A stretch of 26,549 nucleotides of DNA, from the IMG/VR virus record IMGVR_UViG_3300011339_000624, positions 1 through 26,549 of that record, one strand, 5' to 3'. Below the pieces are notes generated by a model. It was not told the DNA's origin and did no database searches. It saw nothing but the letters and a program-made list of their open reading frames with translations. The position numbers and the translations under genes are program-made. This document shows, piece by piece, positions 6,381-20,126 of this stretch; the first letter of the stretch is position 1; each line of letters starts with the position of its first letter. The stretch comes from a virus (Duplodnaviria; Caudoviricetes).

Positions 6381-6602
6381 ATGAGCAAGATAAGATGGAA
6401 GGATGAAAAACAAACGGTAGAGTTTGTTCCAGTATTCATCATCGGTTTTGAAGAAGAGTTTGAACGCGGTGTAATAATGACAACAGCCGCGTACAAAATA
6501 CTAGACGAAGCTGAACCAGACTTCGCAGTCTACGCCATCGACGCAGCAATAGATATATTGATGCAGAGGCGGGACGAAATTGAAAAGAGGGAATTGCACT
6601 GA
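6381..6602 (+). CDS. Hypothetical protein
   Basis: In operon context; TGATG coupling to the primase gene. Confidence 0.7.
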   Translation: MSKIRWKDEKQTVEFVPVFIIGFEEEFERGVIMTTAAYKILDEAEPDFAVYAIDAAIDILMQRRDEIEKRELH

Positions 6603-9076
6603 TGAAGTTTCAAACATTGTACAAGATTGGTTTTACCGATCTCGTGTCCGTTATCCCACCGAACGCTGAGTTGTCAGCCATGTCTAAAATCCAAGCGGAT
6701 CAGGCAGGCAAAGCACCAGGCCGGTTGAATGCGCAAGGCACATGGGGTGGCTATGGCTGGCAGGACTACACGCCGACAGCCAATGATGTCGAACGGTGGG
6801 ACCGCAGCCATGCTAATATCGGCTTGAAGGCCAGCAAATATCCTGCGGTTGACATTGATGTTGTTAACGAGGGGCTGGCTAGGGTCATTGGTGATATGGC
6901 GGTGAAGGCATTGGGCAAAGCCCCGATGCGTATCGGTCGTTTCCCCAAGCGCCTGTTCATGTATCGCACCGAAGAAAAGATAGGGCGCATGCAGGTGCGG
7001 TTCCGTGATGATCGCGGGGTCGAGCAGCTTGTAGAGTTTCTAGGTGACGGGCAGCAGTATGTCATTGCAGGTATCCATCCTATCACTAAGGAACCTTACA
7101 GTCTCGATGTGGACCTGACGCAACGGGGTCCGGCGGGCTTGAAGCTGGTCACGCGGGAAAAGATTGAGCGGTTCTTTATTGATCTGACTGAGACGTTGGA
7201 GATGATGGGCTGCGTTATTATCCATGCGGATAAGACAGCGCACAAGGCCGTCGAGCGGCAGTCGGTAGACCAAGTGTCGCTTACCGCTCCGAGCATCACC
7301 CATGTCGCTGCCGCTGTGGCTGCTATCCCGAACACAACCGAGAACTTCCCAGACCGTGACGATTATATCCGTATGGGCTACGCCATCAAGGCTGCGTGTG
7401 GCCCAGACCATGAGCCGGATGCGTTCGAGATATTCGCAGCCTGGGCCGAGCGTTGGGAAGACGGGGTTAACTCGCTCGATACTATCGAAGCAGACTTCGG
7501 TCGTATGCACCCGCCCTATGAACTGGGTTGGGACTGGCTGGCGGGTAAGGCTGCGACCTTTGGCTACAAGCGCGAGGTCGATGAGTTCGAAGTGTCGGAC
7601 TTTGATGATGAAGACTTCGGCATGGTGGCCTCGGCTGGTGAAACGCCGATAGAGTATAGCGACATTGCATTGGCGCAGCGCGTTGCTCGTCTACACGTTT
7701 CGGATATTCGATACGTTGTTGGCGGCATGGGCTGGGTCGCATGGGATGGTAACAAGTGGGCGAAGGACGTGGCGAACAAGCACCTGTCCATTGTGCGCAA
7801 GGTTTGCGCGAACGCATCGGCTGAAGCGTTGGACAAGATCGAAAGCCCGCAAAAGGCAGAGCGTATCGCGCAGCGTGTGGCGTCATACAATGTTATCTCG
7901 AACGTAGCCAAGCTGGCTGCGGTTGAGCCGACAATGCAAGCAACCACCGAGCAGCTAGACGCGGACATCTATATCCTCAACACCAAGTCGGGGATGGTGG
8001 ACTTGAAGACAGGCGTCCTGTTCGCGCATGACCGTTCGCGGATGTGTACTAAATGCACATCGGTTGAGGCAGACTTCAGCAAACCAGCCCCGCAGTGGCA
8101 AGCGTTTCTGAATGAAGCTTGCAACGGTGATAGCGAGATGATCTCTTACCTTCAAAGGTTGGCTGGCTATTCGGCAACGGGTAGCACCAAAGAGCATGTA
8201 TTAGCCTTCGCTCACGGCTCCGGCGGTAATGGCAAAGGGACGTTCCTTGGCGCGGTAGGAAACATCCTTGGTGATTATGCCACCGTGGCCAGTGCGGACG
8301 TGTTCCTTGCGTCGAACAATCAGCGGCATCCTACAGAGTTGGCGTCATTGATGGGCGCTCGGCTGGTTCACGCGCAGGAGATTGATCCATCGCGCAAGTG
8401 GGACGAAGCCAAGGTGAAGTCGCTGACTGGCGGGGACAAGATCAGTGCGCGGTTCATGCGTCAGGATTTGTTTGAGTTCCAGCCGCAGTTCACGCTTGTG
8501 ATTGCGGGCAACACTAAGCCAGAGATTACTAATGTGGATGATGCCATGCGGCGGCGTATGCACCTCATACCATTTGACACTAAGCCTATCCGCAAGGACG
8601 TTGACTTGCCGGACAAGCTGAAAGAGGAATACCCTGCAATTCTGGCTTGGGTTATCGAAGGCGCTAAGTCTTGGCTGGTAGAGGGGTTGAACCCACCAAA
8701 GGCAGTAGTCGAAGCAACCGATGAATATCTCGCTGGCGAGGACGCATTGGCCCGCTGGGTGACTGAGCGTTGCGTGGCTTCCCCTGACCATGAGATGGGG
8801 ACAACCGAAGCGTTCAATGACTTCCGGGACTGGTGCAAGGATAACAACGAAGCCAAGGGGCGTGACTGGTCGCAGCGTAAGTTCACAGCAGAGATGAAGA
8901 CCCACGGCTATGACCACGCAAAAGATCGGTCCACACGAACGAAGCGTGTGTTCCGTGGTCTTGAGCTTCTCATTGGCGATGCAGATCACATGATCATCAA
9001 CGCCATGATAGACGAGCAGCCGGAAGATTTCTTTGGCGTGCAGATTAACTTTAGGGCAGGTGAGGAGGAACTGTAA
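6602..9076 (+). CDS. Prim-pol / PriCT-2 / D5-type SF3 primase-helicase (P4 alpha-like)
   Basis: N-terminal NIGL...AVDID...QQYV..GIHP (AEP prim-pol), DYIRMGYAIK (PriCT), WVAWDGNKW (D5_N), Walker A GSGGNGKGT, VKSLTGGDKISARFM, AMRRRMHLIPF. Confidence 0.93.
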   Translation: MKFQTLYKIGFTDLVSVIPPNAELSAMSKIQADQAGKAPGRLNAQGTWGGYGWQDYTPTANDVERWDRSHANIGLKASKYPAVDIDVVNEGLARVIGDMAVKALGKAPMRIGRFPKRLFMYRTEEKIGRMQVRFRDDRGVEQLVEFLGDGQQYVIAGIHPITKEPYSLDVDLTQRGPAGLKLVTREKIERFFIDLTETLEMMGCVIIHADKTAHKAVERQSVDQVSLTAPSITHVAAAVAAIPNTTENFPDRDDYIRMGYAIKAACGPDHEPDAFEIFAAWAERWEDGVNSLDTIEADFGRMHPPYELGWDWLAGKAATFGYKREVDEFEVSDFDDEDFGMVASAGETPIEYSDIALAQRVARLHVSDIRYVVGGMGWVAWDGNKWAKDVANKHLSIVRKVCANASAEALDKIESPQKAERIAQRVASYNVISNVAKLAAVEPTMQATTEQLDADIYILNTKSGMVDLKTGVLFAHDRSRMCTKCTSVEADFSKPAPQWQAFLNEACNGDSEMISYLQRLAGYSATGSTKEHVLAFAHGSGGNGKGTFLGAVGNILGDYATVASADVFLASNNQRHPTELASLMGARLVHAQEIDPSRKWDEAKVKSLTGGDKISARFMRQDLFEFQPQFTLVIAGNTKPEITNVDDAMRRRMHLIPFDTKPIRKDVDLPDKLKEEYPAILAWVIEGAKSWLVEGLNPPKAVVEATDEYLAGEDALARWVTERCVASPDHEMGTTEAFNDFRDWCKDNNEAKGRDWSQRKFTAEMKTHGYDHAKDRSTRTKRVFRGLELLIGDADHMIINAMIDEQPEDFFGVQINFRAGEEEL

Positions 9077-9318
9077 TGTATGGGAACGAAGAGAGATTAA
9101 AGAACTGGGCGGCAACTCCGGACATCATCGGGGCTATCCACCTAGATGCGGCGCTGTATGGCGTTCCTGAAAAGGAAATGACCAAGATAAAGATTGTCGG
9201 GCTGTCTAGATCGCTCAACGCGGCTCACTCAAAACTCGTCAAGGCTCATTTGAAAATCCGTAAGTTGGAAAAAGAAAATGCGTTGATGAAAGAGGAACTG
9301 AAGAAGGAGACAGCCTAA
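9076..9318 (+). CDS. Hypothetical protein with C-terminal coiled coil
   Basis: RBS GAGGAGG; TAATG coupling at both ends. Confidence 0.7.
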   Translation: MYGNEERLKNWAATPDIIGAIHLDAALYGVPEKEMTKIKIVGLSRSLNAAHSKLVKAHLKIRKLEKENALMKEELKKETA

Positions 9319-9641
9319 TGTATGGGAACGATTTTATGCGATACAAAGAGATTCGTGATGCGCTCAATGAGGAGGCGCTCTGCGTCGAACCCTTCGATTG
9401 GGCGGATAGGGGTGCGGTGGATGTGGTCAATAGTCCACCGCACTATAAGTCTGGTGGCATCGAGGCCATCGAAGGTATCGAAGCGTCGATGGGGCCAGAG
9501 GCATATGCTGGCTACCTCAAGGGCAATATCATGAAATATATGTGGCGCTATGAAAGAAAAGGAAAGCCGATTGAGGACTTGAAGAAGGCCCGATGGTATC
9601 TTGACCGGCTAATTGGTTTACGCGAACGTAAAGCAGACTAA
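9318..9641 (+). CDS. DUF3310 protein (T7 gp1.7-like putative nucleotide kinase)
   Basis: VNSPPHY...IEAIE...GNIMKYMWRY..K...EDLKKARWYL. Confidence 0.88.
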   Translation: MYGNDFMRYKEIRDALNEEALCVEPFDWADRGAVDVVNSPPHYKSGGIEAIEGIEASMGPEAYAGYLKGNIMKYMWRYERKGKPIEDLKKARWYLDRLIGLRERKAD

Positions 9642-9664
9642 GGGGGCTTCGGCTCCCTTTTTTT
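9640..9664 (+). terminator. Rho-independent terminator
   Basis: AAGGGGGC-TTCG-GCTCCCTT followed by a T-run, directly after the DUF3310 stop. Confidence 0.85.
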
Positions 9665-9669
9665 GGTTT

Positions 9670-9948
9670 GGGGACGCATACGAGAAAGTTGGGGACGCTT
9701 TGGGGACGCTTCGGGGACGGATAAATATGAGGACTTCTGCGGTCGGGGACGGAAGGGACGGATAATTCTGACATGATTGGCTCTAATATAAGTAACAGTG
9801 TTACCCCTGGTCAAATAGCACTGTTACTTACATAGGCCAACAAACCGGCGTTCAAACCCGTCCCTTCCGTCCCGAGCCGCCTAGAAGCTGGGTTTTTGCC
9901 GTCCCCGATTTGTCCCCGTGGCGTCCCCGATTTTCTGAACCCGTCCCC
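9670..9948. repeat. Symmetric iteron array, putative replication origin
   Basis: Six GGGACG copies (9670-9760), six inverted (C/T)GTCCC copies (9859-9948), and a central 12-bp inverted repeat TAAGTAACAGTG / CACTGTTACTTA (9789-9830). Confidence 0.8.
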
Positions 9949-9963
9949 GATGGCAGTTTTCCG

Positions 9964-10497
9964 TTAATCGTCGTCAAAAACACCCGGCAAGTCGTCCGCA
10001 TCGAGATTATGAGAGCCGACTTGCTTGGGTGGTGTGATGTCGATGATGGTGGCGTCCTCGATGATGTCATGGGCTTCATGAGGATTTGATGACGCCAAGT
10101 TTAGCTGCTTCAGTGCATCAAGATGTAGTTGGTTCACGTTCACTTGAATTGCTGTGGCTGGCTTGGCTTGGAACCTGTCAGGGTTCGTAACACCAGCCAT
10201 CCATTTGCGTGTCTCGATCTTGAGCCTATCAGCGTTAGCTGAGTTGTTGTCCGAGGCATCGGCAATGTCCAAGCACTCATCCGCCCATTGCTCCGCCGCG
10301 ATTGACCGAGCTTGCTTGAACCGCTCCTCTCGGTTCGGGTCTTTGCGAATCCAATGGTAGAGGGATAGGTTGCTGATGTTCAGTTCACGGGCAAGGCCAG
10401 CCATCGTCAGGCCAGATGCGATCTTTTCCAGTAGGACAGTCTCTCCAACCTTGTCTAAGTTGGATGCAATCGTGCGGCGTTTAATATGTCCAGCCAT
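9964..10497 (-). CDS. terS: Terminase small subunit (Sf6 gp1-like)
   Basis: LEKIASG..MAGLAREL.IS..SLYHWI (HTH), FKQAR..AAEQWADECLDIAD, RLKIETRKWMAG...PDRF. Confidence 0.8.
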   Translation of the reverse strand: MAGHIKRRTIASNLDKVGETVLLEKIASGLTMAGLARELNISNLSLYHWIRKDPNREERFKQARSIAAEQWADECLDIADASDNNSANADRLKIETRKWMAGVTNPDRFQAKPATAIQVNVNQLHLDALKQLNLASSNPHEAHDIIEDATIIDITPPKQVGSHNLDADDLPGVFDDD

Positions 10498-10500
10498 GTC

Positions 10501-10593
10501 TTATCCTTTGAATACTGTTATAAGCCCATATAAAGCCCATAGAGAGGCATACATGGCGATTGCTAGGTTACGGTCACGATTATAGCTAGGCAT
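10501..10593 (-). CDS. 30-aa hydrophobic peptide (not in ORF track)
   Basis: MPSYNRDRNLAIAMYASLWALYGLITVFKG exactly fills the gap between the XRE gene and terS; GGGGG/GGAG upstream. Confidence 0.5.
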   Translation of the reverse strand: MPSYNRDRNLAIAMYASLWALYGLITVFKG

Positions 10594-10765
10594 GCTCCAG
10601 CCCCCTTAGAAACGTCTCTAAGAGGATAGAGACTGTAGCTGGCACTGGCCGACCACCTTGTTCATAATATCTTATCGACCTTTCGCACAGCCCTATCTTA
10701 TCAGCAAGCTGGCCTTGCGTCAGGTTTAGCCTGTCGCGTATCGCTTTGAACTCTTCATTTGTCAT
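10586..10765 (-). CDS. XRE/Cro-family HTH protein, 59 aa (not in ORF track)
   Basis: MTNEEFKAIRDRLNLTQGQLADKIGLCERSIRYYEQGGRPVP is a classic HTH_3 pattern; ATGA overlap with the upstream ORF. Confidence 0.85.
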   Translation of the reverse strand: MTNEEFKAIRDRLNLTQGQLADKIGLCERSIRYYEQGGRPVPATVSILLETFLRGLEHA

Positions 10766-10947
10766 GTCTCATCCTTCAATGCTGCTTCAGCGTCTTCGAT
10801 CAATTCTATGGGGGGCCAGCGCAGATAGCACACATGGTCTGCGGTTATTACGCCGAGGGATTCCAGATATTCCATCAAGCGGTAGGCCAAGGTGGCCTCT
10901 GCCCGTTCGGTGTATCGGTCAGGCAATGCGTCATCATCATCGATCAT
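10762..10947 (-). CDS. Hypothetical protein
   Basis: RBS AGGAG before the ATG at 10947 (MIDDDDALP...); ATGA overlaps on both sides. Confidence 0.65.
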   Translation of the reverse strand: MIDDDDALPDRYTERAEATLAYRLMEYLESLGVITADHVCYLRWPPIELIEDAEAALKDET

Positions 10948-11078
10948 TTGCGTTGCTCCTGTTCTTTGCGCCTTTCGGCAAAGGTTTTTCCATCCAAGCC
11001 GCGCAGTGGCCAAGCACTGTCTGACGATACTCGATGACCACGCTTTAAGGGCGCGGCCTGTGCTGGTATCTTAATCAT
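10944..11078 (-). CDS. Hypothetical 44-aa basic protein (not in ORF track)
   Basis: MIKIPAQAAPLKRGHRVSSDSAWPLRGLDGKTFAERRKEQEQRK overlaps both neighbouring ORFs. Confidence 0.55.
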   Translation of the reverse strand: MIKIPAQAAPLKRGHRVSSDSAWPLRGLDGKTFAERRKEQEQRK

Positions 11079-11277
11079 GCTGCGGGGTTCCCATCTGTGC
11101 TTTAAGCGCCAAAATTAAGGCTTCATACTCTACCGCTAGGTCATAGTATGTTCCGGCGCGGATTTCGTGGCCCATTTCATCGGCCCGTGCTGCTTTCTCA
11201 AAACAATCTGAACGCACATCATCCAGTGTTGCAAGGATCGTAAGCAATTGCAGGGTGGTTAGCTCTAGTTTGTGCAT
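11071..11277 (-). CDS. Hypothetical protein
   Basis: RBS AAGGGG; tight operon packing. Confidence 0.65.
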   Translation of the reverse strand: MHKLELTTLQLLTILATLDDVRSDCFEKAARADEMGHEIRAGTYYDLAVEYEALILALKAQMGTPQHD

Positions 11278-11278
11278 G

Positions 11279-11563
11279 TTAGGCCCCTTCTACCACTGTG
11301 AAGACATAGCCCGTTCCCTTGGCGTTGCCGCCTTGCGTCCATGTGCCAGTGTTCCAGATTGAGCGGCTACCGCCATGCTTCAAGGCTAGGGCCGTCATCT
11401 TCTCAATCAAGGCCAAGGCGGCGGCTTTGTGTGCGCCGTCACTGTTTAGTTCATGGTCATAGCCGATTGTGATGTTGCCGCCCCAGCATTCCGCTTTGAT
11501 GCGTCCGCCTTTGGTATTGGTAGGGCCAAGGTATTTGGTTTCGATTGCTTGATAGATTGTCAT
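11279..11563 (-). CDS. Hypothetical phage protein (QAIETKYLGPTNTKGGRIKA motif)
   Basis: AG-rich RBS; the N-terminal motif resembles a recurrent uncharacterised phage protein. Confidence 0.75.
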   Translation of the reverse strand: MTIYQAIETKYLGPTNTKGGRIKAECWGGNITIGYDHELNSDGAHKAAALALIEKMTALALKHGGSRSIWNTGTWTQGGNAKGTGYVFTVVEGA

Positions 11564-11628
11564 AATATCTCTCTCTTTATTGGCACTAGCGCCAGCCTCG
11601 CGGCGGATTGCTCCGCCGTCCGGTGGTG

Positions 11629-11838
11629 TTAGCTAACGAATGCGCCACCCTTGTTTAGTATGCGCTCAACGGCGGGCCATGAATATTCGACATCGCCACC
11701 CTTGCCGCTCAACAGGCGGACAACACCGTATGTGTTGCGCGCACCAGCCATTGCAGCAATCTCTCCGTCAAGGGTGATGCCCATTGCATTTGCCTTGTCT
11801 ACTAGGACGAAACGATAGTCGCGGGTTGCTTGTGCCAT
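11629..11838 (-). CDS. Hypothetical protein
   Basis: RBS AAAGG; operon packing. Confidence 0.65.
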   Translation of the reverse strand: MAQATRDYRFVLVDKANAMGITLDGEIAAMAGARNTYGVVRLLSGKGGDVEYSWPAVERILNKGGAFVS

Positions 11839-11839
11839 G

Positions 11840-12022
11840 TCAGTTGCCTTTCTTTGCGGTGTTTAATGCGCGGGCCGCTTCCTTGTGTCCTTCAAGAAAC
11901 AACCAAGTGATAGCGGTGTCGGTGTCTGCGAAATAACGTAGGCGCTTGACGCTTTCGTCACTTAGCAAGAATTGGTCATTACTCTGCCAGCCGTGCCAAT
12001 CGTCATGTGTAAATGAAACCAT
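11840..12022 (-). CDS. Hypothetical protein
   Basis: RBS AAGGGAG; operon packing. Confidence 0.65.
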   Translation of the reverse strand: MVSFTHDDWHGWQSNDQFLLSDESVKRLRYFADTDTAITWLFLEGHKEAARALNTAKKGN

Positions 12023-12024
12023 GA

Positions 12025-12123
12025 TTATTCTCCCTTATCGTTACTGGTAAACAGTGAGACACTGGCCAACATGCCTAGTATCCACAAAAATATGAATGCG
12101 TTGAATGGTAGATAGGCTTCCAT
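12025..12123 (-). CDS. 32-aa single-TM peptide (not in ORF track)
   Basis: MEAYLPFNAFIFLWILGMLASVSLFTSNDKGE fills the gap between neighbours; RBS GGGGG. Confidence 0.55.
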   Translation of the reverse strand: MEAYLPFNAFIFLWILGMLASVSLFTSNDKGE

Positions 12124-12124
12124 G

Positions 12125-12313
12125 TTACGCGCCCCCATTTAACTTGTGGCGGATGTCGTCGATTGTTTCGGTATAAAAACCTATACCTAACGCGGGCAAT
12201 GTATTGCCATCAAAATCATCGACAAGGCGGGCAGCATAGGCGCGGCCTGGTGTGTCGATGCAAGTGCGGCGGATAGTCCAGCGGCGGTTTGCGATGTCTA
12301 CATAGTCAATCAT
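12125..12313 (-). CDS. Hypothetical protein
   Basis: RBS GGGGAG; operon packing. Confidence 0.65.
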   Translation of the reverse strand: MIDYVDIANRRWTIRRTCIDTPGRAYAARLVDDFDGNTLPALGIGFYTETIDDIRHKLNGGA

Positions 12314-12315
12314 GA

Positions 12316-12501
12316 TTACTCCCCTTGTGTTGCGTAGTTAGCGACGAATGCGGTGCAACGTTTACATTCGCGGGGTGATAGCCACATCGCCGAATGGTCG
12401 ATTGCTACGTCAAGGCGGGCCAGCCTATCGGCGAATGGTATGTCGTGGCGTTCAAGGTTAGCGGTGTAACGTTCGAACGCGGTAAGGTTAGCTAGTCGCA
12501 T
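12316..12501 (-). CDS. Hypothetical protein, first gene of the leftward operon
   Basis: AAAGAGAGAGA precedes the ATG at 12501 (MRLANL...); the longer track start overlaps the promoter. Confidence 0.6.
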   Translation of the reverse strand: MRLANLTAFERYTANLERHDIPFADRLARLDVAIDHSAMWLSPRECKRCTAFVANYATQGE

Positions 12502-12534
12502 GGTTAGTCTCTCTCTTTCGTGGTTGAGGTAATA

Positions 12535-12563
12535 CCAATAGGCATGCCGTGCCTGTTGGTCAA
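12535..12563 (-). promoter_or_regulatory. Putative sigma70 promoter of the leftward operon
   Basis: TTGACC-N17-TATTGG, with the dyad AGGCA-N5-TGCCT in the spacer. Confidence 0.5.
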
Positions 12564-12582
12564 TAACAACAACAACCATTAT

Positions 12583-12984
12583 GGTTCTATTATTAGAACC
12601 GATATGGTTCCTTTATATAATCACATTATAATGTGCGCGCCTTGCCCCTATATATAATAATGCCGGAACGATGTGCCTATTTATAGTGGAGAATAGAGAC
12701 CGCCAGTCGTCGTTTCTTGTGCGCCTCTGCGCCCCTTTGGTCGCTTACTAATACACTGTTACACCGTGAAACGCGCAGACATACGTGCTTTTTTATATAG
12801 GGGGGCGGGGGTAGCAATTAATTTATACCCCCCCCGCCCCTGCCTTGCGCGGGGGGCGTGTGCGTAGTACTAAACAGACATCGAGGTGTGACCCCCTCCC
12901 CCCTACCCCCTATGTTTTTCGCACCCAATCCAAAAAAATTGTATAATTTTCCCCTTGCCAAGTTGTAACATTAGAGTGTAACAG
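12583..12984. promoter_or_regulatory. Divergent control region with palindromes and G/C runs (candidate res/pac region)
   Basis: GGTTCTA-TTAT-TAGAACC, the perfect palindrome CACATTATAATGTG, GGGGCGGGGG...CCCCCGCCCC, and TGTAACA repeats. Confidence 0.55.
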
Positions 12985-13014
12985 CGATGGATAACCAAAA
13001 AGAGGAGAAATACG

Positions 13015-13695
13015 TTGGCTGTTTATGGATACACTCGCGTCTCAACTGAAGACCAGATTGAGAACACATCGCTCGATGACCAAGCCCGCCAAATCCAAGG
13101 CATCGTGCTCACACACAACTTGGAACTGGACCATATCTACGAAGAGCGTGGCGTCTCCGGCGGTGTTCCGCTGCTACGCCGAGAAGAAGGCTGCAAGCTA
13201 GCGTTCCTTCGCCCAGGCGATACGGTTATCGTCTCCAAGCTGGACCGTATGTTCCGGGACGCACGGGACGCACTAAACGTGATTGCCGACTGGGAGACGG
13301 CAAACATCAATCTCATTATCAATGGCTATGGCAATGTCATGGACAAGGCCAACCCGAACGGACGGTTTATGCTAGAGATCATGGCCGTCTTTTCAGGGGA
13401 AGAGCGCCGCCGTATTAGAGAACGTGTCACCGCCGGTAAGAGAGCGAAGAGTTCGCAGGGCGGATATGTCGGTGGCAAAGTGCCATTTGGATTTAAGAAG
13501 ACGGGCGTAGGCCGCAAGGCCAAGCTGCACCCAGAGCCAAACGCCCAAGACGCGCTCATCACCATGAAAGCCGCTCGCGTTAAAGGCCATAGCTACCGCG
13601 ATATTGCTATTATCGTAGCAAAGCGTCATGGTATTACGGTTAGCCATCAAACAATTGCACGGGTAATCAGGGGAGATAAGAATGCCGAAGTCTGA
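13015..13695 (+). CDS. Serine recombinase (resolvase/invertase family)
   Basis: YGYTRVSTEDQ (catalytic Ser), ERGVSG, GDTVIVSKLDRMFR, ERRRIRER..AG, GGKVPFGF and a C-terminal HTH. TTG start with RBS GAGGAG. Confidence 0.93.
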   Translation: MAVYGYTRVSTEDQIENTSLDDQARQIQGIVLTHNLELDHIYEERGVSGGVPLLRREEGCKLAFLRPGDTVIVSKLDRMFRDARDALNVIADWETANINLIINGYGNVMDKANPNGRFMLEIMAVFSGEERRRIRERVTAGKRAKSSQGGYVGGKVPFGFKKTGVGRKAKLHPEPNAQDALITMKAARVKGHSYRDIAIIVAKRHGITVSHQTIARVIRGDKNAEV

Positions 13696-15091
13696 GCCAA
13701 ACTTCTTTCTGGAGTTTCTGAAGAAGTATCGCGATGATCCCGTCGGATTCGTGCGTGATATTCTAAGAACCAAACCGGACCCCTGGCAAATCGAGTTCTT
13801 AAAAGCGATTAGTTCAGGCAACCGCCGTATCTCAGTCCGATCAGGCCACGGCGTCGGCAAATCGACTGCCGCAAGCTGGGCCATGCTGCATTACTTTCTG
13901 ACGCGGTATCCCGTGAAGGTTGTCGTGACTGCGCCGACATCTGCACAGTTGTTCGATGCAATGTTCGCGGAACTGAAGCGATGGGTGAATGAACTACCTG
14001 AAGTTCTGAAGGTTCTGATCGAGGTGAAGGCCGACCGTATCGAACTAAAGGCTGCGTCGAGTGAAGCCTTTATCTCCGCCAGAACGAGCCGCGCAGAAAC
14101 GCCGGAAGCGTTGCAGGGTATCCACGCCGACAACGTGCTTCTTGTAGCGGATGAGGCGTCAGGTATTCCAGAGAGTGTGTATGAAGCTGCGTCCGGTTCT
14201 ATGTCGGGCCACAATGCGACGACGCTTCTTCTGGGCAACCCTACCCGAAACAGTGGTTTGTTCTACGATACGCACAACCGTCTGAAGGGTGAATGGAAAA
14301 CCTTCCACGTTAGCTGTCTTGACAGCCCGCGTGTGTCGGATGCGTTTGTCCGAGAGATGCAGCTACGGTACGGTGAGGATAGTCCCGCCTACCATGTGCG
14401 TGTCCTTGGTAACTTCCCGCCGCGGGAAGAAGATACGGTTATTCCTGTCGAGTTGATTGACAGCGCCATGAACCGCGAGATTAAGATCGCCAAGCAGACG
14501 CGAAGTGTGTGGGGCCTAGACGTTGCGCGTATGGGTTCCGATGCTTCCGCGTTAGCCAAAAGGCGCGGCCCAGTTGTCGAAGAGATACAGACTTGGAAAG
14601 GTCTGGACCTTATGCAACTAACCGGCGCGGTTGTAGCGGAGTTTGAGGCGCTGCCGCCGTCCGAGCAACCCGTTGAAATATTAGTAGATAGTATCGGGTT
14701 GGGAGCCGGTGTGCTTGACCGTCTGCGCGAACTGGGCCTGCCAGCGCGTGGGATCAACGTCGCTGAAAGCCCCGCGATGAAAGGGACTTACGCCAACCTA
14801 CGCGCCGAGTTGTGGTTCAAGTGCAAAGGATGGCTGGCGAACCGCGATGTGAAGATACCAAAGGATGAACAGTTGTTCGCCGAGTTGGCGTCGCCGCGTT
14901 ACACCTTTACCTCTTCTGGCAAGATGCAAGTAGAGAGCAAGGAGAGCATGAAGAAGCGGGGGCTTCCCTCGCCAGATAAGGCGGATGCGCTGTGTCTATG
15001 CTTGGCCACCGATGTATCTACTATTATGCACGGCTACTCTATGGCTAACAAGAGTGGAGCCTTGCGTAGAAATATAAAGGGCATTGTTTGA
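13682..15091 (+). CDS. terL: Terminase large subunit
   Basis: PDPWQ, Walker A RSGHGVGKS, Walker B LVADEASG, LLGNP, nuclease motifs GLDVARMGSD and SPDKADAL. Confidence 0.95.
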   Translation: MPKSEPNFFLEFLKKYRDDPVGFVRDILRTKPDPWQIEFLKAISSGNRRISVRSGHGVGKSTAASWAMLHYFLTRYPVKVVVTAPTSAQLFDAMFAELKRWVNELPEVLKVLIEVKADRIELKAASSEAFISARTSRAETPEALQGIHADNVLLVADEASGIPESVYEAASGSMSGHNATTLLLGNPTRNSGLFYDTHNRLKGEWKTFHVSCLDSPRVSDAFVREMQLRYGEDSPAYHVRVLGNFPPREEDTVIPVELIDSAMNREIKIAKQTRSVWGLDVARMGSDASALAKRRGPVVEEIQTWKGLDLMQLTGAVVAEFEALPPSEQPVEILVDSIGLGAGVLDRLRELGLPARGINVAESPAMKGTYANLRAELWFKCKGWLANRDVKIPKDEQLFAELASPRYTFTSSGKMQVESKESMKKRGLPSPDKADALCLCLATDVSTIMHGYSMANKSGALRRNIKGIV

Positions 15092-15303: not shown

Positions 15304-15729
15304 GTGGATACTAAAACTTGTCCGACATGTGGCGAAGAAAAGCCAATTGAAAACTTCTATCCTCAGAAGCGGCAATGCAGGATATGTATACGCGACCACC
15401 AACGCCGCTTCAGAGCCGCACGCCCAGACTATCACCACGGTCGAAACCTTAAACAGCGATACGGTATTACTGTCGATGAGTATGAAACTATCATCGCCAG
15501 TCAAAATTCTGCTTGCGCTATTTGTAAGGTAGAAATACCTGATACAATAGGCTATAAGGGAAAGCGACCAGTTGCTGTTGACCACAACCACGAGACAGGT
15601 GAGGTTCGCGGCATACTCTGCTTGAAGTGTAATTTAGTTCTTGGCCACGCAAGAGAGAATACAGATATTCTTTACTGGGCTATTGTGTACTTGAGTGAGC
15701 GTGGCGCATACGCACCGAAAGGTAGATGA
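15304..15729 (+). CDS. Endonuclease VII-family protein
   Basis: N-terminal CxxC...CxxC, YGITVDEY, CAIC, VDHNHETGEVRGILCLKCN. Confidence 0.9.
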   Translation: MDTKTCPTCGEEKPIENFYPQKRQCRICIRDHQRRFRAARPDYHHGRNLKQRYGITVDEYETIIASQNSACAICKVEIPDTIGYKGKRPVAVDHNHETGEVRGILCLKCNLVLGHARENTDILYWAIVYLSERGAYAPKGR

Positions 15730-16179: not shown

Positions 16180-18597
16180 ATGGCATATCGCAGTAACCGT
16201 AAACCTACCAAGGCCCAAATGGCTAAGAACAACCGTATGTATCAAGACACGGGTGTTCCTAATTCTAATTCGGAAAACGAAGACGGCGAAGATATGTCCG
16301 ACGAAACTTCGATGGAACTTCCTGACGGTACGGAAATTTCTATTGAAGGCCCAGAAATGGAAGACGAGCAGGTAGAAGAACCTGTATCTGAAGAAGACCT
16401 TCAGAATATTATCACCGCCGAAATTGATGATGCGCAAGAATATATCGACGACATCATCTCGCCGCAGCGTGCGCTTGCTGGCCAGTACTATAAAGGCGAA
16501 CCTTTCGGCAACGAAGAAGAAGGCCGTTCGCAGGCTATCTCTATGGATGTACGCGATACTGTACAGGCCATGATGCCGTCGATCATGCGCGTATTCTTTG
16601 CTGCGAACAATGTTGTCGAGTTTGCGCCGAACGGTCCAGAGGATATTGAGAACGCCGCGCAAGCTACAGAGTATGTTAACTACTGCCTGACACGCGACAA
16701 CAACCTTTTCAACGAATGCCATTCAACATTCAAGGACGCGCTGATCCGTAAGAACGGGATCATGAAAGTCTGGTGGAATGACGACAAAGACATCACGACT
16801 CATAAGTTTACTGGCCTAGACGAAGCTACGTTCTCGGTCCTTCAGTCCGATACTACCGTCGAAGTTAAGGACGTAGAGATTACTTACGGCGAAGCGCCAA
16901 TGATGCCGCCAGAGATGGAGGGTATGGTGGACCCAATGGGTATGCCCCCCCCCACGCCCCCACCACCGCCCGCAATGTACGACTGCACCGTTGTTCGTAC
17001 AGTTGAGAAGGGCCGTCTGTGCGTTCAGTCCGTACCGCCAGAAGAGTTTTTGATTGACCGCCGTGCGCGCTCGATTGAGACAGCCGAATTTGTAGCTCAC
17101 CGTCGCTACGTTACGGTATCCGATCTTGTGAAGATGGGCTACGATTTCGATGAGGTCCAAGACCTTGGCTATGAAACGACGGATGACTTTGGCGGTAACG
17201 AAGAAGCATTCGACCGTAACCCGCAAGCCTTTGTTAATATCACAGGCCGCACCGACACGTCCTCGCGTAGAGTTCTTTACATTGAGGGCTATGTGTACGT
17301 TGACATGGACGGCGACGGGATTGCGGAACTTTGCCGCGTCTGCGTTGCTGGCTCGGCTAACAAAGTTCTGCATTGGGAACCTTGCGACTTTATTCCGTTT
17401 GTAGACTTCTGCCCTGATCCTGAGCCACATACCTTCTTTGGCATGTCGATGGCCGACGTGACGATGGACATTCAGCTTATCAAGTCAAACATCCTGCGTA
17501 ACACGCTCGACAGTTTGGCCCAGTCGATTCACCCGCGTACTGGCGTTGTTGAAGGCCAAGTAAACATCGAAGACGTGATGAACACCGAAGTCGGTGGCAT
17601 CATTCGTATGCGTGCGCCTGGTATGGTGCAGCCGTTTACTATTCCTTTTGTTGGCCAGCAAGCGTTCCCGATGTTGCAGTACATGGACGAACTGCGCGAG
17701 AACCGTACAGGTATCTCAAAGGCTGCGGCTGGCTTGGACGCAAACGCGCTTCAGTCTTCGACCCGCGCTGCGGTTGCGGCTACGATCTCTGCTGCGGCGC
17801 AGCATATCGAACTGATCTGCCGTATCTTTGCCGAGACAGGTATGAAGAACCTGTTCCGTAAATCAATGCAGCTTATCTCCAAGAACCAAGACGCGCCCCG
17901 CATGGTCCGTCTGCGCAATAAGTTTGTCCCGATTGACCCGCGTGTATGGGACGCGAATATGGATGTTGTTGTTAACGTCGCTATCGGCGTTGGCAGCAAT
18001 GAAGAGAAGATGGCGTTCTTAGGCCAAGTCGCGCAGAAGCAAGAGATGCTTATGCAGATGGGCGGACCGCTGGCCGACATGCAGGGCTACTACAATACCC
18101 TAGCCCAGATGATGGCATTGGCCGGGTACAAAGACCCGACTGTATTCTTCAACGACCCAGCCACGATGCCGCCCCCCCCTCCACCCGCCCCCCCCCCGCC
18201 GACACCAGAAGAGATGCTGGCCCAGGTTCAGATGGAATCAATCCGCGCTGACATCCAAAAGAAAGCAGCCGATCTTGAATTGCAGCGCGAAGACATGCTG
18301 CGCAAGGACGACCGTGAGCGCGACAAACTTGACGCCGACCTTATGATTAAGGCCGCTGAGATTGAAGCCAAGTACGGCACACCGGTTAACACGGCCAGCA
18401 TTGAAGAAATGATTATGCGTGATCGTGAAATGGTGCGCCAGCAAGAAGAAATGCAGCGCGCCGCTATGCAGGCCCAACAGGATGCGCAGATGGCGCAGGC
18501 CCAGCAGGCCCAGCAGATGGCGCAGGCAGTTCAACAAGCACAGATGCAACCTGAAATGCCGATGCAACCTGAACTCCCCCCAGAAGGTATGGTGTAA
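16180..18597 (+). CDS. Portal protein (P22-like podovirus type)
   Basis: 805 aa after terL, with YYKGEP..NEEEGRSQ, AAQATEYVNY, FKDALIRKNGIMKVWW, VPPEEFLID, ENRTGIS and a coiled-coil C-terminus. Confidence 0.9.
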   Translation: MAYRSNRKPTKAQMAKNNRMYQDTGVPNSNSENEDGEDMSDETSMELPDGTEISIEGPEMEDEQVEEPVSEEDLQNIITAEIDDAQEYIDDIISPQRALAGQYYKGEPFGNEEEGRSQAISMDVRDTVQAMMPSIMRVFFAANNVVEFAPNGPEDIENAAQATEYVNYCLTRDNNLFNECHSTFKDALIRKNGIMKVWWNDDKDITTHKFTGLDEATFSVLQSDTTVEVKDVEITYGEAPMMPPEMEGMVDPMGMPPPTPPPPPAMYDCTVVRTVEKGRLCVQSVPPEEFLIDRRARSIETAEFVAHRRYVTVSDLVKMGYDFDEVQDLGYETTDDFGGNEEAFDRNPQAFVNITGRTDTSSRRVLYIEGYVYVDMDGDGIAELCRVCVAGSANKVLHWEPCDFIPFVDFCPDPEPHTFFGMSMADVTMDIQLIKSNILRNTLDSLAQSIHPRTGVVEGQVNIEDVMNTEVGGIIRMRAPGMVQPFTIPFVGQQAFPMLQYMDELRENRTGISKAAAGLDANALQSSTRAAVAATISAAAQHIELICRIFAETGMKNLFRKSMQLISKNQDAPRMVRLRNKFVPIDPRVWDANMDVVVNVAIGVGSNEEKMAFLGQVAQKQEMLMQMGGPLADMQGYYNTLAQMMALAGYKDPTVFFNDPATMPPPPPPAPPPPTPEEMLAQVQMESIRADIQKKAADLELQREDMLRKDDRERDKLDADLMIKAAEIEAKYGTPVNTASIEEMIMRDREMVRQQEEMQRAAMQAQQDAQMAQAQQAQQMAQAVQQAQMQPEMPMQPELPPEGMV

Positions 18598-20126
18598 TGG
18601 CTATAAACTATAACTTTAACGACCCCGCCCTACAGGGCCTTTTGGGCGCGGCTGGGCCTATCATGGACACGCCCCGTCAGGCGGCGGTTATGCCGATGAC
18701 GCAACAGGCCGTTGCTCCAGATTACCTAAGCATGTTGGCAGGCTTAGACCTAAGCGGTCTAGGCGGCTTTGGCGGCGGTCGTATGGGCGGTGTAATTCAA
18801 GACCCAAACATAGAATATATTACCGCGCCAATATCTAACAAAGGCAACCCTACGGGGAAAATGGGCGGCAATGTTTTTGCAGTGACGCCAAACCAGCCAG
18901 TGCGCCTTGTTGACCTCAACACTAAAACAGTTATCTTTGAGGGCACAGGCGCTGACGCCGCACGCGAGGCGACCCGACTGGGCCAGAGCATAACCGACGA
19001 AAAAGGTCGCAAGGCATCATACGACATTCAAACCGCAGACCCGTCTGGGACGTATGTTACCGTAGCCAATGAGAAAAGAAACAAAAGCGTTCTTGGCAAG
19101 ATTGCGGATGTGGCTCTACCGATTGCCGCTGGCTTTATCCCCGGCGTTGGCCCAGTTCTTGGTGCGGCTCTGGGTTCTGCGGCGTCAAGCGTTGCTCAAG
19201 GGCGCAGTCTAGAAAACACATTGCTCCGCGCCGGATTGTCCGCTGGTGGTTCTGCTCTTGGCGGTCAACTGTTTGGTCAAGTTGCTCCGGGAGCGTCAGC
19301 CCCGATGACCGGTATAAACGCGGACTTAATTCCAAATGCACTTCAAGGTCTTAACTTTGGAAGCCTTGCAAGCGCATCAATCCCTGCTGCCGTTGGTGGC
19401 GCTGCGGGCGACATCCTTGTAAATGCAGCGAGAAACGCCGCGTCTAATGCTATTGGTTCGGCGGCAGGTAGCGCGGCAGGTTCAGTTGCAGCGCAAATAG
19501 GCGCACCAAACCAAAGTAACGTGGTTGATGGTGTTGACCAAGACACAGGTGACATCGTTGTTAGCAAATACCGCCCATTAAGCCCTTCGGGCGGCTTTGA
19601 TCCTATAGCCGCTACGGCTGCGGTAGCCTTTCCTACCGGCTCTATACTTGACAGTTTAGGCCCACTAAATCCACCACCCGCAGACCCCGCGTTGATGGAG
19701 CCTCAAGTAGCCACACCGCAACTTCCTCTTGAAGGCGCTATAGTTCCTACTCTAGGCCCACTAGTCGCCCCGCCATCAACACCGCCAACGGCTCCAGGTA
19801 ATGGTGGCGTTCTCGGCACGGGCCTGAACATACCCCAACTCTTATCCATTGGTGGCGTTGGGGCCGATCTGCTAAAAAGCCTTCTAGCTGGCGGTGGTGA
19901 TACAGGTACAGGCGTGCCATATGTTTCCCCGTTTGGCACGGGCGTAGGTTTCGCGCCTGGCCGCGATATGCGCGTTAATCCAAACATCTTAGATTACGAG
20001 CGGTATGGCTTTGGCCCAGAAGCAATGTTCTTCCGGCCAGAGTATAGCGGTCTTGTGTCTGGCGCTGCGCCTGCCCAAGCCCCGCAAGCCATGACCATCA
20101 ACCCTGCGTACCAGCCGCTAATCTGA
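18597..20126 (+). CDS. Gly/Ala/Pro-rich protein, possible internal virion or ejection protein
   Basis: TAATG and TGATG coupling; glycine-zipper hydrophobic segments (IAAGFIPGVGPVLGAALGSAAS). Confidence 0.55.
   Translation: MAINYNFNDPALQGLLGAAGPIMDTPRQAAVMPMTQQAVAPDYLSMLAGLDLSGLGGFGGGRMGGVIQDPNIEYITAPISNKGNPTGKMGGNVFAVTPNQPVRLVDLNTKTVIFEGTGADAAREATRLGQSITDEKGRKASYDIQTADPSGTYVTVANEKRNKSVLGKIADVALPIAAGFIPGVGPVLGAALGSAASSVAQGRSLENTLLRAGLSAGGSALGGQLFGQVAPGASAPMTGINADLIPNALQGLNFGSLASASIPAAVGGAAGDILVNAARNAASNAIGSAAGSAAGSVAAQIGAPNQSNVVDGVDQDTGDIVVSKYRPLSPSGGFDPIAATAAVAFPTGSILDSLGPLNPPPADPALMEPQVATPQLPLEGAIVPTLGPLVAPPSTPPTAPGNGGVLGTGLNIPQLLSIGGVGADLLKSLLAGGGDTGTGVPYVSPFGTGVGFAPGRDMRVNPNILDYERYGFGPEAMFFRPEYSGLVSGAAPAQAPQAMTINPAYQPLI

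Follow-up and report, generated by a model that had tools for sequence, protein, structure and literature searches.

In phage P1 the recombinase Cre acts at loxP, a site that is duplicated in the terminally redundant virion DNA, and it carries out both cyclisation and dimer resolution. Hin, Gin and Cin are small serine recombinases, and so is Sin of the Staphylococcus plasmid pI9789, whose target resH consists of a crossover site (site I) and a regulatory site (site II). The half-sites of Sin site II are arranged head-to-tail (PMC2428073). A serine recombinase of 226 aa (13015..13695, plus strand, PF00239) is also encoded in the viral DNA discussed here, a stretch of 26,549 nucleotides from IMG/VR record IMGVR_UViG_3300011339_000624 (the window), which is a 26.5 kb fragment of a podophage. 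Its gene precedes terL, and terS lies on the opposite strand beyond a block of small open reading frames (ORFs). The explanation that fits best, to which we give a probability of about 0.55, is that the terS block is fixed, that a short motif repeated on both sides of it is a half-site of the recombinase, and that a single two-part res straddles the predicted genome terminus, where it would resolve multimers or join genome ends. What would be new is a Sin-like resolution system with its res split by the predicted genome end and with an extra site in the predicted origin of replication.

The window resembles the Sin system in having a small serine recombinase and a res made of sites I and II. 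It differs from it in the integrase-like GGxxPFGY linker of the enzyme, in a spacer of about 200 bp between sites I and II that holds the predicted terminus, in the extra dyad at the origin, and in its place in a phage in which neither ParA nor a tyrosine integrase was detected (five relatives). Hin, Gin and Cin share the enzyme type, and site I (26 bp, AA centre) presumably resembles hix; in contrast to these systems, the window has no second inverted crossover site, no inversion was seen and the lineage stands in one orientation. Cre is a tyrosine recombinase with a simple site, whereas here the enzyme is of the serine type, the res has two subsites, the repeat is predicted to be fixed, and ParA was not detected in the relatives. 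P1 is listed as a headful packager with ParAB (PMC8026635 Table 1), and small serine recombinases are listed in plasmid prophages in the same source (PMC8026635). HTVC010P-type phages carry tyrosine integrases (PMC8477408). No account of this recombinase family was found in the literature, in a search that reached few subscription papers.

A preliminary description of this DNA placed terS (terminase small subunit, Sf6-like; 9964..10497, minus strand; PF20901, E 2e-15; phrog_1482) about 3.2 kb from terL, last in an operon of tiny ORFs, and this is correct; the distance to the terL start (13682) is 3185 bp, and the minus-strand genes before terS include an Xre gene besides the small ORFs. It also raised the possibility that the recombinase inverts this block. 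The loci compared were collected with recombinase, terS and two recombinase alignments; 191 hold both recombinase and terS, some contigs having been fetched twice. terS runs opposite to the recombinase in 138/138 loci with a recombinase at least 67% identical (116 distinct spacers), and in line with it in all 53 loci at 41–49% recombinase identity (49 distinct spacers). The orientation of terS follows lineage, and the layout is fixed across the lineage of the window, where comparison of the relatives gave no inverted terS block in 138 loci. Recombination junctions were looked for at both supposed ends. At site I the sequence to the left is the usual one in 87 of 87 true loci (85 recognised by pattern, 2 by eye), with no alignment to the origin in any of them. 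At the origin dyad 46 of 47 loci run on into terS and one is cut off; none is joined to the site I flank. Read-level evidence consists of assembled contigs only, from at most three studies that are mostly possible sources of the window. No strand-changing joint occurs in the assembled contigs of seven runs, from which rare variants drop out, so that a minor isomer could escape; one run contig covers 9576-13043 without a break.

The sister lineages give some idea of how the layout arose. An AGAGAC..CGCGC..GATTTG element stands directly after terS in one sister group. The lineage of the window has it in forward orientation immediately to the left of site I, and has kept both iteron arrays of the origin in place. 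Because the element is still forward and left of site I, the historical rearrangement of terS would not have gone via these motifs. The data bear out the fallback offered in the preliminary description, in which the rearrangement is ancestral and fixed and the motif copies are sites of one shared protein. In the sister lineages examined (L206-L268) terS and terL always flank the recombinase, which is preceded or followed by small variable ORFs, and most of these lineages have a C-run/G-run/A-run-T-run element after terS. Two loci were set aside. L351, one of the 88 site I pattern matches, has unrelated flanks and was dropped as chance. In L020 (9720-11314) terL is inverted beside the recombinase by a fold-back join between the equivalents of window positions 12733 and 14285 (in terL) through a short shared stretch with no motif there; it is probably an amplification or assembly chimera and was left out of the site counts.

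The four motif copies reported earlier are all present: GTAACAGTGT (9792-9801), ACACTGTTAC (12753-12762), CACTGTTAC (9819-9827) and GTGTAACAG (12976-12984). A fifth copy, TGTAACA at 12964, had been overlooked. The half-sites at 9792 and 12753 are in opposite orientation and share a 10-bp identity. Counting the 7-mer, which had been suggested as a check, gives no enrichment; it has 4 copies against 2.48 expected, and 4 or more were found in 27 of 100 shuffles. Five of the six WGTAACA matches in the window fall within two intergenic stretches, together about 3% of its length. With a weight matrix built from relatives, whose training set is the homologous sites themselves, the five copies rank top (14.0–18.3 bits) and the next match scores 8.1. 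The right-hand copies are nearly invariant across 59 distinct upstream regions, including that of the window. What exceeds chance for the motif is its position and conservation, not its count. A candidate site upstream of terS (10513-10522) is not conserved and was dropped.

The right-hand copies belong to the predicted res, one of them at about 260 bp before the recombinase gene and the others over its promoter. Site I (12738..12763, plus strand) is 26 bp long and reads TGGTCGCTTA CTAATA CACTGTTACA, with a degenerate left arm; it is the likely crossover site and lies inside the predicted terminal repeat. Its pattern was matched in 99 of 102 loci, one of these spurious. A 28-bp register for site I was replaced by the 26-bp register seen in full dyads. 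Site II (12964..12996, plus strand) lies over the recombinase promoter, which has a -35-like TTGCCA at 12955-12960. In the subclade of the window site II is a head-to-tail pair of TGTAACA copies 13 bp apart, and in the sister subclade and on plasmids it is an inverted 33-bp dyad. It stays with the operon promoter even where the recombinase gene is about 700 bp away (L257). The gap between sites I and II is 191–204 bp in 60 sequences of the window's subclade and 201–278 bp in 18 of the sister subclade, and the gaps cluster weakly near multiples of 10.5 bp (R 0.55, p 0.035, 11 clusters). Judged by sequence layout, a site I and a site II next to the gene correspond to a Sin-like res. In Sin-like systems the spacer between the two is short and phased and is bound by HU/IHF, against 191–278 bp in the phages. 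Each of five near-complete relatives contains a single recombinase and a single site I/II pair. No tyrosine integrase was detected in them, and all five lack a match to ParA (AAA_31); ParM and TubZ were not searched for.

A similar arrangement exists outside the phages. On an Azospirillum plasmid and on Methylobacterium plasmid pM44601 a 26-bp dyad is followed, after 5 and 15 bp respectively, by a 33-bp dyad at the promoter. These dyads carry their own half-site sequences, and no terminase was detected nearby. An alphaproteobacterial contig has a 33-bp dyad found by script and a 26-bp dyad found by eye. In 6 of 9 loci of a distant phage group terS and the C-run element have a full 26-bp dyad between them, and the single locus whose promoter was scanned has a 33-bp dyad there; five other distant loci have neither dyad. 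The pM44601 locus (L436) is a compact module of P4 primase, opposed GGGAC iterons and recombinase with 26-bp and 33-bp sites, and the phage has the same three parts.

The recombinase has a catalytic serine (S10), a GGxxPFGY-type linker and a C-terminal helix-turn-helix with SHQT at residue 210. Its catalytic residues (YxRVS and DR motifs) are invariant in all aligned members, so that it is a small serine recombinase with an intact catalytic domain, as expected of a DNA invertase. The fold model of a homologue that is 68% identical (P0057, mean pLDDT 82) matches Bxb1 integrase, ranked first, and Tn3/gamma-delta resolvase. PHROG scores integrase above invertase, and similarity to the Sin catalytic domain is low (E 6e-4). 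For the member examined (the first of the 31 shown) no NCBIfam family reaches its cut-off, the matches to CcrB and XisF being far below it. The closest non-phage homologues (38–46%) are on plasmids. One of these sits between RepA/Mob genes and a YefM-YoeB pair, and another follows a P4 primase and an iteron array, a context typical of multimer resolvases.

The motif is likely a half-site of the adjacent recombinase, as the pattern of covariation suggests. In the sister subclade the motif is TGTTAAG(G/C)CG at all three places, namely the origin centre, site I and the promoter. The promoter motif type matches the recognition helix in 77/77 rows (60 HQ/HM with TGTAAC, 17 HV with TGTTAAG). The recognition helix of TerS is essentially unchanged between the two motif types, and that of Xre differs among relatives of one motif type, as judged from an alignment and not from a tree. 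The association between recombinase and motif made in the preliminary description is therefore supported by the way motif type tracks the recognition helix, and inversion between motif copies is the part that is not. A strict one-residue recognition code (Q/M->A, V->T, E->C) was also considered and fails for the Methylobacterium enzyme.

A C-run/G-run element (12828-12856) is located between sites I and II, and in sister lineages it stands directly after terS. The genome terminus probably lies at this element, and the predicted feature, including the inner end of a terminal repeat near 12868, spans 12828..12869 on the plus strand. The prediction derives from Sinorhizobium phage phiM5 (MF074189), the closest cultured phage by TerL (56%) and portal (46%), which has been placed in a LUZ24-like lineage (PMC10386132). 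Like the window, phiM5 has annotated polymerase A, Cas4-like exonuclease and primase genes and a C-run/G-run element before terL. It differs in having an annotated integrase elsewhere and no matched serine recombinase of this family. The 357-bp terminal repeat of phiM5, known here from its GenBank annotation, lies just before terL and ends 13 nt past the C-run/G-run element. With a profile built from 131 sequences of the element, the best match in phiM5 is at 312-356, at the end of this repeat (E 0.026), which would place the inner end of the repeat at about 12868 in the window. Among 19 right-truncated contigs, 9 end 84–114 nt after site I, where the predicted end is at 115 (p 2e-5 against a uniform distribution), and two more contigs end 13 and 14 nt past the G-run. 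In one of the 7 runs (X5) a piece of 176 nt (12682-12857) has a depth of 21.6, compared with 7.2 and 10 for its neighbours, which is too weak to count. A DNA search of 12680-13020 against cultured phages gave only chance matches of 20 bp, the C-run/G-run stretch folds no better than its shuffles (z -0.08), and the repeat-borne gene 1.2 of phiM5 has no detectable relation to terS. One locus (L313, same contig as L121) departs from the normal sequence at the C-run after site I and enters an unrelated ORF; it is a misassembly or a rearrangement at the predicted terminus.

The left-hand motif copies lie in an intergenic locus that is likely the replication origin (predicted, 9670..9948). It has two inward-facing GGGAC iteron arrays around a central spacer and the inverted repeats I1 and I11. 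In the SaPI origin the iterons lie downstream of the primase-helicase gene, run in opposite directions around a centre and are read by a C-terminal winged helix (PMC9371898). By sequence the window has the same SaPI/P4-type arrangement, with opposed iterons after the gene of a P4/D5-type primase-helicase (6602..9076, plus strand; PF08706, PF19263, phrog_1156) and matched to its C-terminal domain, and this layout is also found after the P4 primase of pM44601. There are two main iteron types among close relatives. Residue 774 of the primase is K in 27/27 GGGAC-iteron alleles and R in 36/36 GTGCA-iteron alleles, so that it predicts the type in 63/63 classified cases, across subclades; 11 further alleles, unclassified or of a third iteron type, are outside this count. 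The primase-helicase is the likely initiator at the adjoining origin. In one sister lineage (L213:3250-3640, L220:8330-8720) several TTATCCACA boxes, which we take to be DnaA-box-like, lie in the predicted origin after the primase gene.

The difference from the SaPI origin is in the centre, where 43 of 64 alleles have the predicted recombinase dyad and the other 21 an AT-rich, HNH-linked sequence. The dyad in the window is 38 bp long (9791..9828) and is a putative, optional recombinase binding site. Its length is 36, 37 or 38 bp in 6, 12 and 29 of 47 loci. In the 21 distinct alleles without it an HNH gene lies next to the AT-rich centre; this gene is beside the origin in all 21 and in none of the 43 that carry the dyad. 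The HNH genes (L087:2932-3428, L097:3621-4118 and 19 other alleles) may encode homing endonucleases, with a cut in the dyad allele leading to conversion of the origin centre. Twelve dyad-less loci reach the recombinase; the catalytic motif and site I are present in all of them, and site II in 11. Because its length varies and about a third of the alleles are without it, the dyad is an improbable candidate for an obligatory crossover site. Some members of the sister subclade (L173, L179, L188, L189, L194 and L195) have extra tandem TGTTAAG-type half-sites between the origin and the terS stop.

The recombinase would bind all of the predicted sites, cutting at site I and using site II as an accessory and autorepression site. 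The stretch 12580-13015 would be the place where the two physical ends of the genome meet in the assembly, with the small-ORF/terS block and recombinase-terL reading inward from opposite ends. If the terminus holds, the divergent layout simply reflects the meeting of the two ends, and each end of the virion DNA carries site I. As a genome has a single res, recombination requires a second copy as partner, either that of a dimer or concatemer neighbour (monomerisation) or that of the second terminal repeat (circularisation). The recombinase would most likely convert dimers or concatemers to monomer circles, and once the DNA has been injected it may also link the two terminal repeats to each other. 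This last role is less certain, since site II would be missing from the right end and supercoiled DNA is the substrate of the characterised reactions. The origin dyad would be a lineage-specific extra binding site at which the recombinase restrains origin opening or initiation; such restraint is dispensable, because an HNH-linked allele without the dyad exists. A further proposal, which is tentative and at present doubtful, is that this large freshwater podophage family has a Cre-like circulariser with site I at both ends. The recombinase, as the first gene behind the left repeat, would circularise and monomerise the genome and then shut its own promoter and cover the origin, acting as a protein-level timer from circle replication to packaging.

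Several observations weigh against a recombinase-bound res at the terminus. The motif switch in the lineage is a single event on both the recombinase and the TerS trees, so the trees cannot decide which protein is the binder, and the Methylobacterium enzyme has V in its helix and yet a TGTAA site. The two-dyad layout is not seen in 3 of 6 non-phage loci (Gluconobacter, Vibrio and Geminocystis). The gap between sites I and II is about 200 bp in the phage and 5–15 bp on the plasmids, the left arm of site I is degenerate, and its centre is AA in 32, AG in 7 and TT in 4 of 44 sequences, with one spurious. For the terminus, the phiM5 match is weak (E 0.026), homopolymer runs that break assemblies could also explain the cluster of contig ends, and no cluster of left contig ends was seen. 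Headful packaging is listed for B83, whose TerL is more distantly related (PMC8026635 Table 1), and wild-type Hin and resolvase reactions have been described on supercoiled DNA (PMC4817059). The absence of ParA (AAA_31) from five relatives argues against a stable low-copy plasmid prophage. Products of res x res recombination are unchanged in sequence, so no recombinant product is visible.

In the inversion model raised by the preliminary description the recombinase would turn round the segment 9.8-12.75 kb, with the origin dyad and site I as its ends, which would destroy the origin and align terS with terL. The half-sites at 9792 and 12753 match over 10 bp in inverted orientation, sister lineages do carry terS in line with recombinase-terL, and virion-derived assemblies and contigs could mask a rare or intracellular isomer. 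However, none of the 138 loci is inverted and no junction was found at 87 site I and 47 dyad loci. Paired inverted crossover sites are not present, as the dyad, with its 36–38 bp and variable centre, fits neither the 26-bp nor the 33-bp geometry. It is missing in 21 of 64 alleles, and the 12 such loci with a recombinase all retain the catalytic motif and site I. The position of the AGAGAC..CGCGC..GATTTG element indicates that the old breakpoints were not these sites. With one orientation throughout the lineage, no motif joined to the other flank, no strand-changing joint in the contigs of seven runs and a left dyad that is variable or absent, an invertible cassette is very improbable. The suggested replication-to-packaging switch by inversion is unsupported on the same grounds, namely fixed orientation, lack of junctions and a dyad of variable length that 21 of 64 alleles do not have. 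An inversion switch would have been the more surprising result, and the evidence is against it.

The other alternatives keep the motif as a binding site or the recombinase as an enzyme and change the role of one or the other. The recombinase could be mainly a DNA-binding regulator that represses its own recombinase-terL promoter and the origin, with recombination minor or absent. Site II overlaps the promoter and follows the operon promoter even where the gene is some 700 bp off (L257), the origin dyad has no crossover geometry and site I has only one good arm. The invariant catalytic residues and a 26-bp site I spacing kept in both phages and plasmids make this unlikely. It could instead be a miniature serine integrase with site I as attP for integration into the host chromosome, as the first rank of Bxb1 integrase for the homologue model, the PHROG scores and five relatives without another integrase might suggest. 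This is quite improbable, given that the enzyme has 226 aa against about 500 aa for the matched integrases and only the Resolvase domain in Pfam, without the full recombinase and zinc-ribbon domains of a large serine integrase, that GTDB scans, in which the host may not be represented, found no integrated copy of the lineage with host flanks, and that 0/87 site I loci are host junctions. Binding of the motif by TerS, as a packaging signal, or by another protein would leave the recombinase as a mere neighbour. Site I does adjoin the predicted packaging element, and the split between the two motif types is equally clean on the TerS and recombinase trees. A TerS recognition helix that is essentially constant across the motif switch and a two-dyad layout that recurs on plasmids with no terminase detected nearby speak against it, and the chance of this reading is small.

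'Pin-like invertase' genes between terS and terL are common in uncultured freshwater phages and have no assigned job. The family now has a defined predicted target, a 26-bp site I and a 33-bp site II at the predicted terminus, with a half-site that tracks the recognition helix. Circularisation and multimer control in phages with short terminal repeats would become testable, and a small recombinase family with naturally varied specificities may serve as a tool.

The remaining genes are those of a podophage whose near-complete relatives are 37.4–38.6 kb in size. By Pfam and PHROG matches, the left side of the window encodes a helicase, an ssDNA-binding protein, an exonuclease and polymerase A, and the right side an SU10-type portal, a capsid protein and an adaptor. 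A DUF3310 gene (9318..9641, plus strand) and a terminator-like hairpin after it (9640-9669) precede the origin. Upstream of terS on the minus strand are an Xre-type helix-turn-helix gene (10586..10765, PF01381) and a variable block of small ORFs (10762..12579), which is accessory, with gene content and length that vary among relatives; its genes are probably early ones, with a direction of reading that runs inward from the predicted end of the genome. terL (terminase large subunit, 13682..15091, plus strand) overlaps the recombinase stop and is 56% identical to phiM5 TerL. An Rfam scan of 9300-13300 gave two matches only, both at chance level. No host junction or prophage context of the recombinase lineage was found in the GTDB scans, in which the host may not be represented; the contigs hit in Arenimonas, Limnohabitans and Polynucleobacter bins are short and do not identify a host. 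River metagenomes hold DNA that is near-identical to the window. The terL-portal interval varies much in length among relatives, and the portal and scaffold genes are separated by a low-complexity ORF of 509 aa (18597-20126) that matches nothing in Pfam or PHROG. Two free-standing nuclease genes, one of HNH-AP2 type (920-1432) and one of endonuclease VII type (15304-15729), are inserted in the replication and head modules.

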